Shown here piece after piece: positions 6,001-15,000 of a stretch of 19,223 nucleotides of DNA. A program made the position numbers. This DNA comes from Campylobacterota bacterium. GTDB taxonomy: Bacteria; Campylobacterota; Campylobacteria; Campylobacterales; Sulfurimonadaceae. The stretch spans positions 17,650 through 36,872 of the forward strand of contig JAYEMF010000044.1 in NCBI GenBank assembly GCA_034717975.1, given 5' to 3'. Within the stretch, counting starts at the first letter, position 1. Each line of letters begins with the position of its first letter.

Positions 6001-9000
6001 TTGCGATAGAAAATATCCGGGGAGTAGGGTACCGCTGTGATCTCAAGTGAACAAAAAGCCGTCAATAAATTTTTTTTCATCTACTTCTTCAGTATGGCAC
6101 TGCTGATCTCCTCAGCAGCCGTTTTTTACTATTATCAGCAGAAACATCTCCGGTTACATCATGAACTCTTTTCCATGATTCAGTATGCCAAAACTGTAAA
6201 ACACAGCGGTTTTACGTATGAAGAGGAGGGGCTTGATTATACAAGGATTGAAAAGCCTGATGGCAAACAGCAGGTTGAAAACATCAAACGTGTCGCAGAT
6301 CTGTTCCATCTTACTATCCCCAGTAGACGCTCCAACAGGGCTTTGCTTATCACAAAAGATGCCGGCTCCTATGATAGGATCATACAGCAGCTGTTCTATC
6401 AGATCATTACAACGACCCTGATCCTGCTCACACTCTTTTCTATTATCAGTTATTATCTCTCACTCCTTTCCATCCGGCCGTTAAAAAAGACGATACAGCT
6501 ACTGGACGCCTTTATCAAGGACCTGGTGCATGATCTTAATACCCCGACCACATCGATACTGCTGAATATCAAAATGCTCAAGAACAAAAGCAGTGAACGC
6601 GATCCGCAACGGCTCGATAGGATCGAAGAAGCTACCAACGAGATCGCTTCACTCTATAAAAATCTTGCTATTTTACTTGATGAATCAAAACTGATATGTA
6701 CCACTCAGGATATCTGCCCAATTGTCCGGCAGAGTGTTCACTCCTACCGGGAGCTCTACCCGGACCTGAATATTTCACTGCAGTGTGAGAAGCTTGAAAC
6801 AGCGGTTCATCCGGAAGCCTTTTCCCAGATGATCGGCAATATCATCTCCAATGCCTGCAAATATAACAGGCCCGGCGGATATGTAACGGTTAGGAGAGAT
6901 GGAAAACGTTTGATCATTGAAGATGGCGGTATCGGGATGAAAACACCCGAAAAAGTATTTGAGCGCTACTATACGGAGAGTCTGGATGGCCACGGCATAG
7001 GGATGCATATTGTCAGCCGTCTGGCAAAGGTGATGAATATAGGCATTGTTTTTCACTCTGAAGAGAAGAGGGGAACCCGCTGTATCTTAACACTGCGTTA
7101 ACACTGCTATCTGATAATACTCTTATGAAAATTTAAATTGTCCGAAGGAGGATGTTATGAAAAATCCAATAAAAGAGATTGCTGTGAGTGCAATGGTCGC
7201 AATATTAGTAGGTGCCATACCGGTTCTTGTACAGGCCGAGGAGTTGCCGGACAGGGGACCAGTACCCTTTTCTGCCTATGATAAAAACGGCGACAACAGT
7301 ATCAGCGAAGAGGAGTTCTACGGAGTACGTGCCCAACGTATGGAAAAACGTGCCCAAGAGGGCCGTCCGATGCGCAGAGCTGCCAATGCACCTGATTTCA
7401 GCGAGTTTGACAGTAATGGTGACGGAGAGTTGACATCTGCAGAGTTGACAGCAGGGCAGCAGGCTCAGATGCAACAAAGAAGAGGTGGAAAAGGCATGGG
7501 CAAAGGCCAAGGTGTCAAATAAAATATATTGAGGCGGGAGTAAATCATGAGTACTAAAACAGTAGTGAAGAAGACGGTCTCGTTAACGCTCGGCCTCTCT
7601 TTTTTGGTCATGAGTGTAACAGGCCTTATGCTCTTTATCGTGCCAAAAGGAAAGGTTGCCTACTGGGCCGACTGGAAGATGTTCGGGCTTACGAAAGAGC
7701 AGTACGGCGATCTTCATACCACGTCGATGGTGCTTTTTCTGGTTATTACCGTCTGGCATATCTATTACAACTGGTCACCATTGATCGGTTATATTAAAAA
7801 CAGTGCCAAACAGATCACGCTTTTTAAGAGAGAGTTTGTCATCGCCTTTTTGGTCAACTTATCTTTTGTCGCAGGCACACTGTTGGCCCTTCCTCCGTTT
7901 CAGACAGTGGTGGATTTTGGGAGCGATATCAAAGCCTATTGGGAAAAAACCTACGGGTCGCCGCCTTACGGCCATGCGGAAGAGTCCTCCTTGCGGGAGT
8001 TTTCACAGCGTATCGGCCAGAGCGCACAAAAATCAGTGGCACTTTTAAAGGAAAAAGGGATAACGGTAGAGAAGAAGAGCGACTCCCTAAAGCAGATCGC
8101 AAGAGATAACAGCGTCTCTCCGCAGGATATTTACAACGTGATTCGGCCGGCATCCTCCGGCGGTGGCAAAGAGGTGACTTTTTTAGGCAGAAGGACACTT
8201 GGAGAGCTTGCCGGGATGCAAAAAATCGACTTGGAAAAAAGTATAAAATACTTACATGAAAAAGGCTTTGACGCAACAGAAGAGAGCCGCATGCGCGAAG
8301 CGGCAAACACTCTTGGACAAACGCCTTATGAACTCTTTGAGAACTTAAAGGCTTCAGGGTTACCACTTCTCCAAACCGTTGAATAAAGAAGCCTTTGAAG
8401 CTTACTACTTCTCAAACTGATTCTTCTGTGTAACTTCTCTTCCGTTTGCAATCGACAAAGAACTCCATTTAACATAAACGTAACACTATGAAATGTATAA
8501 TCCAGAAGACTTCAAATTATAAAAGTCATAAGTCTCAGATATATTTCTGAGTTCAAAAAAGGGACAGGAATGAAAATAGCGACAAGATTGCTGATTATGC
8601 TGGTTTTGGTATTTGGTTTTGCGGAAGCAAAGATGTTTCAGACAGTGGCACCGGAGAAAGCGGAGCTTTTACAGACAGGCAAAGGGAAGCTCTACTGCCC
8701 GAACTGCGGAATGAACCTTGTCATGTTCTATAAGACATCACATGCGATGAAACAGCATGACGGTTCAACGCATCAGTACTGTTCTATGCACTGTCTTGTC
8801 GAAGCAAACGATCAGATCAACGCCGATGCCCAGGTTGTTGATGTAAGCGGTTTGAAATTTATCAATGCGCATGATGCCCATTATGTTGTAGGCAGCAGTA
8901 AAAAAGGGACTATGACGATGAACAGCAAATATGCATTTGCGGCTAAAGCGGATGCAGAAGCCTTTGCCAAAGCCAACGGCGGTAAAGTGATGAGCTTTGC

Positions 9001-12000: not shown

Positions 12001-15000
12001 CCGGCAGAAACGGTTGTCCTTAAAGGGGTTAGCGGCAGTGGAAAATCCACTCTGCTCTCCATTATTGCGTCGTTGATCAAGCCAAGCAGCGGAGAACTGA
12101 TCGTCGATGGAGAGCAGATCGCCAAACTGCCTGACTCTCATGCTTCACATTTCCGTAATAGCCATATAGGGTTTATTTTTCAGGCTTACAATCTTTTTGA
12201 TGAGTTGAGTGTCAAAGATAATGTAGCACTTCCGCTCATCGTGACAGGGGTATCTCAAAAGGGTATTGATGAAAAAGTGCAGCAAGCGATGGAGATCGCT
12301 CATATCGGGCATAAACAAGATCAGTCGGTGCAGGATCTCTCCGGTGGGGAGAAACAGCGCTGTGCCATTGCCCGGGCCCTGGTGCATTCTCCTAAGATCA
12401 TTCTCTGTGATGAGCCGACAGCCAATTTAGACAGAGAAAATTCCCTTAAGTTTATTGAGACGCTCAAGCAGTTCAAAGCCCTTGGGAAAACGGTAGTTAT
12501 TGCCACGCATGATCCACTTTTTGACGGGCTTGAGACGGTTGACCGGACGATCGTCATCGAGGATGGACATATCGTCACATCATGATCCTGCTTGCCAATG
12601 AAGTCATCATCTTTCTTTTTGTCGAAGGACTGCTGCTGTTACTGCAGAGCATCGCCTTTATCAATGCGATAAGTATCCTTTCGCGTTGGAACTTTACATC
12701 ATTCAGCGCCTTGCAGTATCGCCTGGAAAAAAGAGCGTATCTGGTGGTCCTGATCATCCTCTTCACGCTGGGCTTCAAGATAGTGATGCTGCCATTTTTC
12801 AGCTATACCATTGACCAGCTCTCCGTCATTGTTCCGGGAGCCATGTGCGGTGCCGGGGTGATCAGTGCCAACGAGTATGGCCCGGTGCTGCTCTTTTTGA
12901 AGGTGATGATCCTCTTTCTGATTGGAAGCTGGCTGATCCTCAACAACGAAGATATCAAAGCCTCCTCCTACCCCTATTTCAAAGCAAAGTTGTGGCTCTT
13001 TCTTCTGATCTATCTATTGGTTGTGACAGAGTCCGTATTGGATATCCTCTACTTAACGAACATCCCTATAGATGACCCGGTCTCATGCTGTTCAACAATC
13101 TATGGGATAGCCGGCGGGGGCGACCCCCTGCCATTCAGTCTCGATACCGCCAGACTGCTGATGCTCTTTTATCTGATCTATGCGCTGATCTTGGCCACCA
13201 ACTATTTTCGCTATACCTATATTAACCTCGTAGCCAATCTTTTTTTCCTCTATATCGCTTATCACGCCGTAGTCTATTTCTTCGGTACCTATGTTTACGA
13301 ACTGCCTACCCACCAGTGCCCGTTTTGTATGCTGCAAAAAGAGTATTTCTATGTGGGCTATTTTATCTGGGGGAGCCTTTTTTTAGGAGCCTTTTTTGGT
13401 ATTGCCGGGGCCATACTCAAGGGAATTATGCGCAAAGAGGTGGATTTTGTCTATGGGGCTAGTGCTCTTTTTAATACGATTTTTGTATTATTATGTTCAC
13501 TGTATGTAGCTGTCTATTATTTGAAAACGGGAGTCTTTTTATGAATGTTTTAAAGAAGATAATGCCGATACTTATCGTTTTTGCTCTGATCGCCGTAATT
13601 GTTGCTGTTTTTTTAGGCCGTGCCAAAGAGCAGCAGATGCTGACAGTTTATGAAGGCAATCTGAAGCAGCTCCCTGTTGAGATCAAGCTGGGACATTACC
13701 AGGATACGCAGTGCGGTATGCCGGTAGAACAGCTGGGTGACAGCTGCCAGGTGAGTGCACCCGATGGTAAGACATGGTTCTTCGATGATGTCGGCTGTAT
13801 GGCTTTGTGGATAGAGAACAAATCTTTTATCGATGAGGCGAAGATATGGGTCTATTCCCGTGACACGGACGGATGGATTGATGCACGAACCGCGTGGTAC
13901 TCACTCACTGACAACACCCCTATGCGTTATGGCTTTGGGGCTTACAGCACACGACAAGAGGGTTTTATTGATTTTGAGACGATGAAACTGAAGATGCTGC
14001 GCGGTGAGAATATGACCGATCCGTATGTCCGGAGGGAACTGCTTGGAAACCATTGATCTGCTCTCTATCATCACCATCGCTTTTTTAGGCTCTTTCGGCC
14101 ACTGTGTCGGGATGTGCGGGGGTATCGTCATCGCCTATTCGAGTACAAAAGTCGATGTGGGATGGAGTCGTTCCAAGCAGGCTCTGTCGCATCTGTTATA
14201 CTCTTTCGGCAGAATTACGACGTATGTGATCCTGGGTGTGATGTTTGGCTATTTGGGCGGCGTGACCACCTTCAGCAATGAGGCCAACGGTATTTTGCTG
14301 ATCATTGCCGGCGTTGCCATGATCCTGGCCGGTCTCTCTCTGCTTGGAAAAATAAAATTTTTAACGGTAGTGGAGCATACGATTTCGACCAGTGGCTGGT
14401 ATAGGCATACCTTTAAGACACTGCTGAACAACCAGACACTGCTGAGCTTTTTTCTTTTAGGAATGTTAAATGGCCTGCTGCCATGCGGTTTCGTCTACTT
14501 TTTTGCCATTACCGCGGCGAGTACGGCGAGCCCGCTGTGGGGCGGGGTGGTGATGCTGGTCTTTGGACTTTCGACGATCCCGGCACTCTTTAGCCTTGGA
14601 TTTTTTGTCGGCCTCTTCAAGCAGAGCAGCCTGCGGGGATTGATGATTAAACTCGCTTCTATTGCAGTTATAGTCTATGGTGGGTATACTTTCTACAGCG
14701 GATATGAATATATCGTCAACCCGGACAAAACTATTTTAGATTGTCATACCAAACCGTTAGAGGAGATCGAGTGAAGAGAGTAAGTGTTACGGAGTATATG
14801 GAGCTAAAAGGTCTTAGCCGAACAATGGCTTATAAAATGATCAAAGACGGAAGTGTGGATGCTGTCAAAGAGAGCAATCGCTGGATGATCGCAACTGAAC
14901 CTGAAAAAGAGGAAGCAACCGTGGCAAAAGAGAAAGAAGTTAAAAAAGCGGCACCAAAAAAAGCGGTAAAGAAAAAAAGTGATGTCAAAGTAAAGAAAAG

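Follow-up and report, generated by a model that had tools for sequence, protein, structure and literature searches.

The window, the whole stretch of 19,223 nucleotides analysed here from a Campylobacterota bacterium of the Sulfurimonadaceae (GenBank GCA_034717975.1, contig JAYEMF010000044.1, positions 17,650 to 36,872), contains an operon between positions 8570 and 14774. The genes listed by the genome-wide survey's note all lie where it had placed them on the + strand. Upstream of the operon lie genes for a two-component system, for an EF-hand protein and for DUF4405. The features, in window positions, are:

8570..9244, + strand: NosL-1, with a signal peptide, a type-A NosL domain and a C-terminal Cys-pair extension
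9387..10481, + strand: NosL-2, with type-A plus type-B NosL domains
10492..10746, + strand: small single-TM membrane protein (about 84 amino acids), with homologues before the permease in other loci
10730..11914, + strand: FtsX/MacB (LolC-like) ABC permease, PF02687 (E 1.1e-10) and, weakly, PF12704
11911..12585, + strand: LolD/FtsE-like ABC ATPase, PF00005 (E 1.3e-34)
12582..13544, + strand: TM8, an unannotated 8-TM protein, motifs G-A-M88-C89, C169-C170 and H244-x-C246-P-F-[C/D]249
13541..14056, + strand: NosL-3, a membrane-anchored divergent NosL-like protein
14043..14774, + strand: membrane protein of the DsbD_2 family, PF13386 (E 4.7e-50), motifs HCVGMC and LLPCG

With Pfam, NosL is recovered once at 8570 and in two copies at 9387, along with FtsX, ABC_tran and DsbD_2. 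NosL-1 matches PF05573 (E 8.9e-15, 55.6 bits for a cut-off of 24) and carries the type-A ligand signature C43-x2-C46-G-M48, C71-x2-H74-C75 and GTM. The N-terminal part of NosL-2 is 72% identical to NosL-1 and its type-B domain has the motifs C241-x2-C244-G-M, FDGVKD and GPMG. NosL-2 matches PF05573 in two stretches (E 4.7e-48, 163.3 bits for the same cut-off) and also the solved NosL (PDB 7OG7; E 7.9e-13), in an alignment that pairs the Cu ligands. In sequence, NosL-1 and NosL-2 resemble soluble Sec proteins and not lipoproteins. NosL-3 has the motifs D-x2-C74-G-M, FDDVGC102 and PM (signature DCMDGCM), with a ligand swap of the clade II type; taken alone, it has no match in Pfam, NCBIfam or the PDB, and it is joined to NosL by BLASTP clustering and motif only. 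Its ATGA-coupled start is at 13541 (13493 for the ORF finder, which starts the DsbD_2 gene at 14025). The ATPase ORF shows ATGA coupling at both its upstream and downstream junctions. The permease, with a probable start at ATG 10736, matches PF02687 with 42 bits (cut-off 25.5); its best NCBIfam match is LolC/E, with TIGR02212 below cut-off, and no named equivalog (LolCE, LolD, FtsE or MacB) reaches its cut-off for the ABC genes of the window. The small membrane protein matches no Pfam family. In a survey of start codons, neither ATG, GTG nor TTG occurs 5′ of its helix, and we infer from the sequence that its start would be ATC at 10492; the contigs of four DNA runs contain no variant letters in this gene.

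The operon is real, and its core consists of NosL, the small membrane protein, the MacB/LolC-type permease, the ATPase and TM8. In the Campylobacterales, TM8 is present in 73 of 151 genomes, and the gene order described previously holds, with the ATPase directly upstream of TM8 at 71 of 72 loci and the permease (a single gene per module) at 70 of 72. The small membrane gene, missed by the survey's note, precedes the permease at 61 of 72 loci in the order and at 68 of 80 loci outside it. On the other hand, DsbD_2, which the note had included in the operon, is ruled out as a core gene by its occurrence at 16 of 72 Campylobacterales loci and at 2–4 of 80 elsewhere, and is accessory. The module is not confined to the order and extends to eight further named phyla. 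NosL is found in 72 of the 73 TM8-bearing genomes, and an adjacent NosL is absent at 10 of 64 loci. At the 80 loci outside the order, the neighbours are NosL (63), CusA-like (25), CusB-like (24), TlpA (18), multicopper oxidase (13), YtkA (12), SCO (4), DsbD (4) and FtrD-like (4) proteins; the module is there flanked by CusA/CzcA pumps, YtkA, multicopper oxidases and thioredoxins, and NosD, NosY and NosZ are absent at all 80. Within the order, CusA/CzcA was rejected as a genome-wide partner (present in 75 of 151 genomes, without tracking TM8). The promoter scan remained at chance level (14 found for 14.1 expected). The search for RNA data listed no set holding the module, a result that bears neither way on its expression. 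In the searchable papers, our literature search found no description of the permease, the ATPase, TM8 or the small gene.

Among 8000 candidates, 1212 are related to TM8 at E ≤ 1e-5; the 120 relatives listed are all without a Pfam domain, as the note had it, and TM8 itself has no family match in Pfam or NCBIfam. The predicted model (pLDDT 87.2) contains eight long helices. Most of the Cys and His residues put forward as invariant are kept in all or nearly all copies: C89, C169, C170 and C246 are each present in 120–122 of 122 diverse homologues, and H244, like M88, in 112 of 112 module copies. The exception is position 249, where 96 of the 122 homologues have Cys and 23 have Asp; the CxxC is intact in the window copy and at 109 of 112 module loci. 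Judging from the alignment, the exchange of Cys249 for Asp is a behaviour that would be possible for a metal ligand. Every motif sits in one of three Lys/Arg-poor loops, and the Cys/Met/His motifs are all predicted to face the periplasm. In the permease, no Cys, His or Met is conserved at ≥90%, and the conservation analysis found no NosD-like metal site. One example of an ATPase–TM8 fusion occurs. The complex prediction gives a score of 0.57, with 0.00 for the best of three controls and 0.00 after replacement of the permease; the runs share at least 86% of contacts and the partner pLDDT is at least 76. The mark applied is reached by 116 of 157 solved pairs and 2 of 215 mismatched pairs, but only 18 of the 157 solved pairs reach it with a score of 0.60 or less, as do both mismatched ones. 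This prediction gives weak backing to the copper-delivery reading developed below.

Fold searches with the whole TM8 model returned only generic four-helix bundles (best Z 12.6, no Foldseek match at E ≤ 0.001), and so did those with the C-terminal half, a model without TM4 (best Z 10.0). Neither VKOR nor DsbB is among the matches listed. As far as the predicted model goes, these searches point to neither a known nor a new fold. PDB profile searches with TM8 gave nothing, the named Atlas clusters contain no match, and no plasmid match was found. The MFS rows of the Atlas have TM <0.5, and there is no internal repeat between the two halves (hhalign 0.9%).

The Cu ligands of the reference NosL are C62, M64 and M145 (PMC8457098). 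Their equivalents are kept in all four NosL domains of the window. Overall, the M145 equivalent occurs in 172 of 174 NosL domains; the presence of C62 and M64 in this set is forced by domain selection. Three Zn-site variants of NosL co-occur. By homology, the window proteins would share the binding and transfer of Cu(I) of the NosL family.

A client, unknown to the survey's note, can be proposed for one clade of the module, which is built into the mcc cluster, with MccA as the first enzyme for testing function. All 44 genomes with a true MccA (haem-copper sulfite reductase) have TM8, a pattern first seen in nine genomes and then found again in each of 35 new ones. In 42 of the 44, TM8 lies 8.4–11.8 kb downstream of mccA on the same strand, the other two being split at contig ends. 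In contrast, TM8 is found in none of the 14 genomes with a divergent MccA-like protein, and at least six of the eight such proteins inspected keep both Cys equivalent to those that we take to be the copper ligands of MccA. In family f11, the TM8 set coincides with the true-MccA set, and three NosZ genomes of that family are without TM8. The mcc-linked copies form one clade (10 of 10 rows, SH-aLRT 99) spread over four genera, so that the 44 co-occurrences represent one retained recruitment and not 44 events. MccL of the mcc cluster is NosL-like, as Eller, Hein and Simon are said to have found in 2019. In Shewanella, nosL (SO0485) and nosY (SO0488) come after sirA-sirI-sirC-sirD, according to a table of PMC5955497; thus two different machines occupy one position. 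In 44 of 44 genomes the mcc cluster (MccA, PDB 4RKM) has this clade of the module as its distal half, whereas the window copy is free-standing: the window genome has no true MccA, and mccA-B-C-D-ccsA1 is absent upstream of its module.

After removal of G001, G103 and G114 (weak, short TIGR04246 matches with E ≥ 7e-5), 63 genomes of the initial 66 were retained as NosZ-bearing. The term NosZ-independent, used in the note, is right insofar as the module occurs without NosZ (25 of the 73 TM8-bearing order genomes, and all 80 loci outside) and NosZ dispenses with the module (15 of 63 genomes); it does not hold in the sense of unrelated to nos. NosZ is present in 48 of the 73, the association within families is enriched (odds ratio 4.0, permutation p = 0.017), and in 16 of the 48 genomes with both TM8 lies at most 20 kb from nosZ. 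The module recurs as an add-on to clade II nos clusters, with NosD, NosF and NosY as separate genes beside it. In 19 TM8 genomes, neither NosZ nor true MccA occurs. In the window genome, the nos cluster is, as reported, on a separate contig (C77), and NosZ is the most plausible client, for which the module would supplement NosZ's own NosDFYL.

With NosDFY-NosL (PDB 7OSF-7OSJ, 7ZNQ and 7OG7; PMC8457098, PMC13685413) the module shares NosL with the same Cu ligands and an ABC ATPase plus permease; both lie beside periplasmic copper enzymes, and in mcc the module takes the nosL/nosY position of Shewanella sir. However, it has neither NosD nor NosY, its permease is of the FtsX/MacB type, and it adds TM8, the small membrane protein and up to three NosL subtypes, with or without NosZ. 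The FtsX-type permease and LolD/FtsE-like ATPase are shared with MacB/LolCDE-type systems, from which the module differs by its single permease gene, the lack of a MacA/TolC or LolA partner and the nearly invariant link to TM8. Also comparable is FetABCDEF of Campylobacter jejuni (PMC10783030), in which an ABC system of unknown substrate and a polytopic membrane protein with Cys, together with a metal-binding domain and thioredoxins, serve a periplasmic metal pathway. Fet has DUF2318 and YHS domains in FetA, two permeases and the linked FetM/P19, while the context of the module is copper; DUF2318 (PF10080) is found in none of 112 TM8 members.

The note's proposal of a periplasmic copper-handling system distinct from NosDFY is upheld by context: the NosL ligands, the topology of TM8, and the links to MccA, NosZ, CusA/CzcA, YtkA and multicopper oxidases. 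We infer copper binding by the module from these sequences, and we lean, with slightly better than even confidence, towards a portable ATP-driven machine for the periplasmic hand-off of Cu(I), working like NosDFY-NosL with non-homologous parts. The NosL domains would bind Cu(I) at Cys/Met/Met and dock on a complex in the membrane, formed by the permease, the ATPase, the small protein and TM8. The ion would then pass to the periplasmic Cys/Met/His cluster of TM8, standing in for the NosD copper site, a role given to TM8 because the permease has no conserved ligands. ABC systems of the MacB type work by mechanotransmission without a substrate channel. ATP hydrolysis would likewise move periplasmic domains, with no substrate crossing the membrane, and Cu(I) would be released to apo-enzymes: MccA in one clade, NosZ alongside its own NosDFYL, and possibly multicopper oxidases elsewhere.

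Several of the counts given above speak against copper delivery: the single recruitment behind the mcc link, the divergent MccA-like and the NosZ genomes without TM8, the TM8 genomes with neither NosZ nor true MccA, the loci without an adjacent NosL, the failure of CusA/CzcA to track TM8 in the order, and the absence of a true MccA from the window genome. The VKOR-like profile hint and the thioredoxin/DsbD neighbours (TlpA at 18 and DsbD at 4 of the 80 loci outside the order, DsbD_2 at 16 of 72 inside) are counterpoints to copper delivery and fit a redox role. TM8 could be a VKOR-like membrane thiol:quinone oxidoreductase, in which HxCPxC and the loop Cys relay electrons and the MacB-type ABC gives ATP-driven help, so as to maintain the redox state needed by the NosL thiols, by Cu(I) or by the Cys ligands of the client; this would still be copper-enzyme maturation, with TM8 as redox station. 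We regard it as doubtful, although it is the main rival. The weak similarity to VKOR (PF07884) covers residues ~166–251 of TM8, with a loop Cys, two helices and a CxxC on the periplasmic face. Two of 112 TM8 members match the Pfam profile below cut-off (E 0.002 and 0.007, residues 174–251 on profile positions 43–121; at best 18.7 bits for 27.5). With hhalign, 25 VKOR-like domains give a probability of 66.5% with CxxC on CPFC (15% for the nine strongest domains), where 15 other families stay at or below 0.85%, 12 shuffles at or below 0.75% and the reversed sequence at 0.25%; the pairwise E of 5.4e-5 is not significant at library scale, since VKOR emerged from a scan of 24,736 families. With A2, an alignment of greater diversity, the probability is down to 24% and 6%, and leaving out the CxxC columns lowers it to 2.4%. 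In addition, the second Cys of the CxxC is frequently Asp, TM8 has four extra N-terminal helices with the GAMC motif, and the invariant M88 and H244 are unnecessary for dithiol chemistry. A redox-relay model of this kind is proposed for FetA/FetBCD/FetEF in the Discussion of PMC10783030.

Two further readings seem to us quite improbable. As a copper resistance or sensing accessory, the module would capture excess periplasmic Cu(I) for CusBA-type efflux or multicopper oxidases, the mcc and nos links then reflecting co-regulation. CusA-like genes do occur at 20 of 37 full-length loci outside the order, often in the same gene run and with YtkA and multicopper oxidase, and in one case inside it (G025); but the module is strictly embedded in the mcc cluster where Shewanella has nosL/nosY, and no TIGR00914 match was found in the window genome or in any of the three f11 carriers (at most four candidates scored per genome). 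With similarly little probability, the ABC–TM8 unit would handle another metal or cargo, for example Zn for the structural site of NosL, or membrane-anchored NosL by LolCDE-like extraction. NosL needs Zn at its Cys/Asp site (PMC8457098), its Zn-site variants co-occur, the Cys/His/Asp-rich site of TM8 could suit Zn, and the LolC/E match and the FtrD-like neighbours also favour this reading. Against this, the invariant Met adjoining a Cys favours Cu(I), NosL-1 and NosL-2 do not look like lipoproteins, and the neighbours are copper-centred.

A bolder combination, which we think rather unlikely, would make TM8 a VKOR-derived membrane protein turned into an ATP-coupled station for Cu(I) and thiols, whose site, driven by a MacB-type motor, would reduce copper as well as pass it on. 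Such a station would belong to a general copper-maturation pathway of the periplasm in anaerobes of at least nine phyla, taking the place of NosDFY in the case of MccA and perhaps of clade III N2O reductases; a passage of the review PMC13685413 mentions a MacB-type transporter accessory to clade III nosZ.

NosDFY is the only structurally understood ATP-driven machine for periplasmic copper insertion. A second, non-homologous one, if copper delivery is the right reading, would explain the copper supply of MccA in Campylobacterota and, on a question brought up in PMC8457098, the presence of NosL in many non-denitrifiers. Through the link to mcc the idea can be tested directly, on a single enzyme with a single copper site and with sulfite respiration as the growth phenotype. 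The copper economy of clade II N2O reducers, sinks for a greenhouse gas, would be concerned as well, and two annotation-free families, TM8 and the small membrane protein, would gain a function.

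In the window (positions 17650-36872 of contig C44), the genome-wide survey's note had described a NosL, ABC, TM8 and DsbD_2 operon; its genes are all there, on the plus strand, but the note had overlooked a gene for a small membrane protein with a single helix, which sits between NosL-2 and the permease.

Genes of the operon (window coordinates)
8570-9244, + strand: NosL-1, a NosL protein
9387-10481, + strand: NosL-2, with two NosL domains
10492-10746, + strand: small single-helix membrane gene (predicted start), between NosL-2 and the permease
10730-11914, + strand: FtsX-type permease
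11911-12585, + strand: ABC ATPase
12582-13544, + strand: TM8, 320 aa, without annotation
13541-14056, + strand: divergent NosL-like ORF
14043-14774, + strand: DsbD_2

From the permease onward, the gene ends overlap. NosL-1 and the first half of NosL-2 are tandem paralogues (72% identical as protein and 74% as DNA). No ATG, GTG or TTG precedes the helix of the small gene in the window or in seven other loci (L136, L143, L145, L146, L196, L200 and L202); in these, ATC-, ATT- or GTT-like codons follow purine-rich stretches. Judged from the sequence, the small gene of the window would start at the ATC at 10492, and contigs from four DNA runs of one study carry no variant there. A non-canonical start may be a conserved means of keeping translation low.

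Directly upstream (5397-8386) are a response regulator, a histidine kinase, an EF-hand protein and a DUF4405 gene. Since six other loci (L126, L194, L199, L206, L226 and L227) likewise have a regulator/kinase pair ahead of the module, it is a possible regulator. A histone-like protein (HTH-like, Lys-rich), coupled to the DsbD_2 stop, and a YhbP/PNPOx-like gene follow at 14771-15700; neither is seen in the other module loci. At 94-3280, a DinB_2/FGE-sulfatase/methyltransferase fusion is followed by a PLP enzyme, an arrangement presumably resembling the ovothiol genes ovoA and ovoB. Over a PAS/HAMP kinase, located after a phosphonate-binding-like protein, the GC content falls to 35% (15500-17000).

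The module (NosL, small gene, permease, ATPase and TM8) is a real and conserved feature that has yet to be characterised. Of 72 Campylobacterales loci, 71 have the ATPase immediately ahead of TM8; the permease (70), the small gene (61) and NosL (52) also lie upstream, and NosL (51) and DsbD_2 (16) downstream. NosL is found in 72 of the 73 TM8-bearing genomes of the order. Outside the order, the best 80 of at least 599 relatives in named genomes, a biased set picked by similarity to one distant homologue, belong to Thermodesulfobacteriota (34), Nitrospirota (15), Pseudomonadota (9), Myxococcota (5) and four further phyla with one each, with 13 lacking a phylum assignment. Sixty-one of these 80 loci have sufficient upstream DNA, and there the small gene and permease are always present, with the ATPase in 60 and NosL in 56.

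TM8 has 1212 relatives among 8000 candidates, and 986 representatives at 50% clustering; no Pfam family is above cut-off in 112 members. The predicted model (pLDDT 87.2) has eight helices, and fold searches bring up nothing beyond generic four-helix bundles, an outcome that fits a known as well as a new fold. Loops 1, 3, 5 and 7 carry 16-18 Lys/Arg per 100 residues, and loops 2, 4 and 6 carry 2-5; because all conserved Cys are in the latter, the motifs face the periplasm. Across a diverse set of 122 homologues, M88 is retained in 120, C89 in 122, C169 and C170 in 120, H244 in 115 and C246 in 121; C249 is retained in just 96 and is replaced by Asp in 23. None of the permease's Cys, His and Met residues reaches 90% conservation, and TM8 is therefore the ligand-rich membrane component. 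Co-folding of permease, small protein and TM8 scores 0.57 (vs. 0.00 for the best of three controls, one of which replaced the permease), with at least 86% of contacts shared between runs and partner pLDDT of at least 76. Of 157 solved pairs, 116 reach the co-folding mark, as do 2 of 215 mismatched ones, and the band up to 0.60 holds just 18 of the solved pairs and both mismatches; the model thus hints at a possible complex. One ATPase-TM8 fusion is on record.

Of 151 genomes of the order, 73 carry TM8 and, once three weak matches are removed, 63 carry NosZ: both in 48, TM8 only in 25, NosZ only in 15, neither in 63. Within families, the association has an odds ratio of 4.0 (permutation p=0.017). 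Of the 48 genomes with both, 16 have TM8 no more than 20 kb from nosZ, 6 have the two far apart on one contig and 26 have them on different contigs. Gene maps of nos-linked loci have the module appended behind nosY/nosL, and nos clusters without the module are intact in all seven cases inspected. A rapidly built tree of 80 rows (SH-aLRT as the only support measure, L116 omitted, "free" labels uncertain for drafts) requires nine changes for the nos-linked TM8 copies. Thus, the module is separate from NosDFY and dispensable for NosZ, yet repeatedly beside nosZ. NosZ is absent from the five non-order host genomes tested. Clade III nosZ clusters are stated to encode a MacB-type component (PMC13685413), which may be this module.

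Several module loci are preceded by a multihaem cytochrome, FKBP, a 4Fe-4S protein, an NrfD-like protein, CcsA1 and Sel1. This cytochrome is MccA (PDB 4RKM, E=0). MccA is a copper-containing enzyme. Among 401 genomes there are 58 MccA matches, 44 of them true (59-100% identity) and 14 divergent (47-50%). TM8 is present in 44 of 44 true-MccA genomes, a rule drawn from the first nine and repeated in 35 new ones, and the weight of which is limited by the mcc-linked copies forming one clade in four genera; it is in none of the 14 divergent ones. In 42 of the 44, TM8 is 8.4-11.8 kb downstream of mccA on the same strand, and in the remaining two a contig end breaks up the mcc cluster. Within family f11 of the initial sample, the genomes with TM8 are exactly the three with true MccA. 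Both Cys matching the MccA copper ligands are kept in at least six of eight divergent sequences inspected, with the module absent, which also limits the rule.

A table in PMC5955497 gives the Shewanella oneidensis order sirA, sirI, sirC, sirD, then nosL (SO0485) and nosY (SO0488). Thus, behind one and the same enzyme, one lineage has NosL-NosDFY and another has the module, and this swap behind MccA is the strongest functional argument. In S. oneidensis, nosD and nosF sit between nosL and nosY. Literature searches bring up no account of the module; papers on mcc clusters, or their supplements, may mention its genes, and MccL reportedly figures in work by Eller in 2019. In one genome (G021; loci L137 and L167), the module comes after mccC, mccD and ccsA1, and no mccA is found. 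At L156-L159 and L218-L221, a divergent MccA-like group is followed by a protein of ~690 aa (in L156 with rhodanese, multihaem and cytochrome b domains), and mccBCD and the module are absent. The window TM8 groups in the tree with copies of families f9, f17 and f5 and with mcc-linked copies, apart from those of its own family, which transfer or differential loss might explain. Two more TM8 copies, on contig C1 of genome G264, are each in two pieces and probably frameshifted.

NosZ, NosD, NosY and MccA are absent from the best 80 (of at least 599) non-order loci. By raw counts without a background rate, over related loci that are not independent, the neighbours there include a CusA-like pump (25 of 80; 20 of 37 full-length loci), CusB-like (24), TlpA (18), multicopper oxidase (13), YtkA (12), SCO (4) and FtrD-like (4) proteins; two CusA-like pumps checked are both above the CusA/CzcA cut-off. 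The NosL domains have three Zn-site types, and a Met equivalent to M145 (ligand positions from PMC8457098) is kept in 172 of 174, a set that includes nos-cluster NosL and in which selection forced the N-terminal ligands. Two Methylococcaceae loci (L060 and L061) continue after the module with NosL, TlpA, a fusion of NosL with a Phenol_MetA_deg-like domain, and DsbD. A fifth NosL domain of the window's genome is in a 611-aa membrane protein (C82:10883-12718) that has an RND pump and a TonB-receptor-like gene as neighbours. A NosL pair at L189 adjoins sox-like genes in a genome (G043) without a TM8 or NosZ match.

Most likely, the module works like NosDFY-NosL without being a member of that system; mechanotransmission is the mode of action of MacB. 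That it is instead a VKOR-like redox station seems rather unlikely. Two TM8 members match VKOR weakly, and a profile alignment of TM8 with 25 VKOR-like domains puts the CxxC motifs in register at a probability of 66.5% (the controls, 15 families, 12 shuffles and a reversal, all stay below 0.9%), but the remaining pairings give 6-24% and removal of the CxxC columns leaves 2.4%. Because VKOR was picked after a library scan, the similarity is a lead only. Thioredoxin neighbours of the module also speak for the redox reading, as does the precedent of Fet (PMC10783030).

The genome of the window has NosZ on contig C77 and two COX1-family genes, and no match to true MccA, multicopper oxidase or CusA/CzcA; by inference, NosZ would be the likeliest client there. 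Taking the NosDFY-NosL-like delivery reading and the redox reading together, the module quite probably serves in the maturation of copper enzymes.
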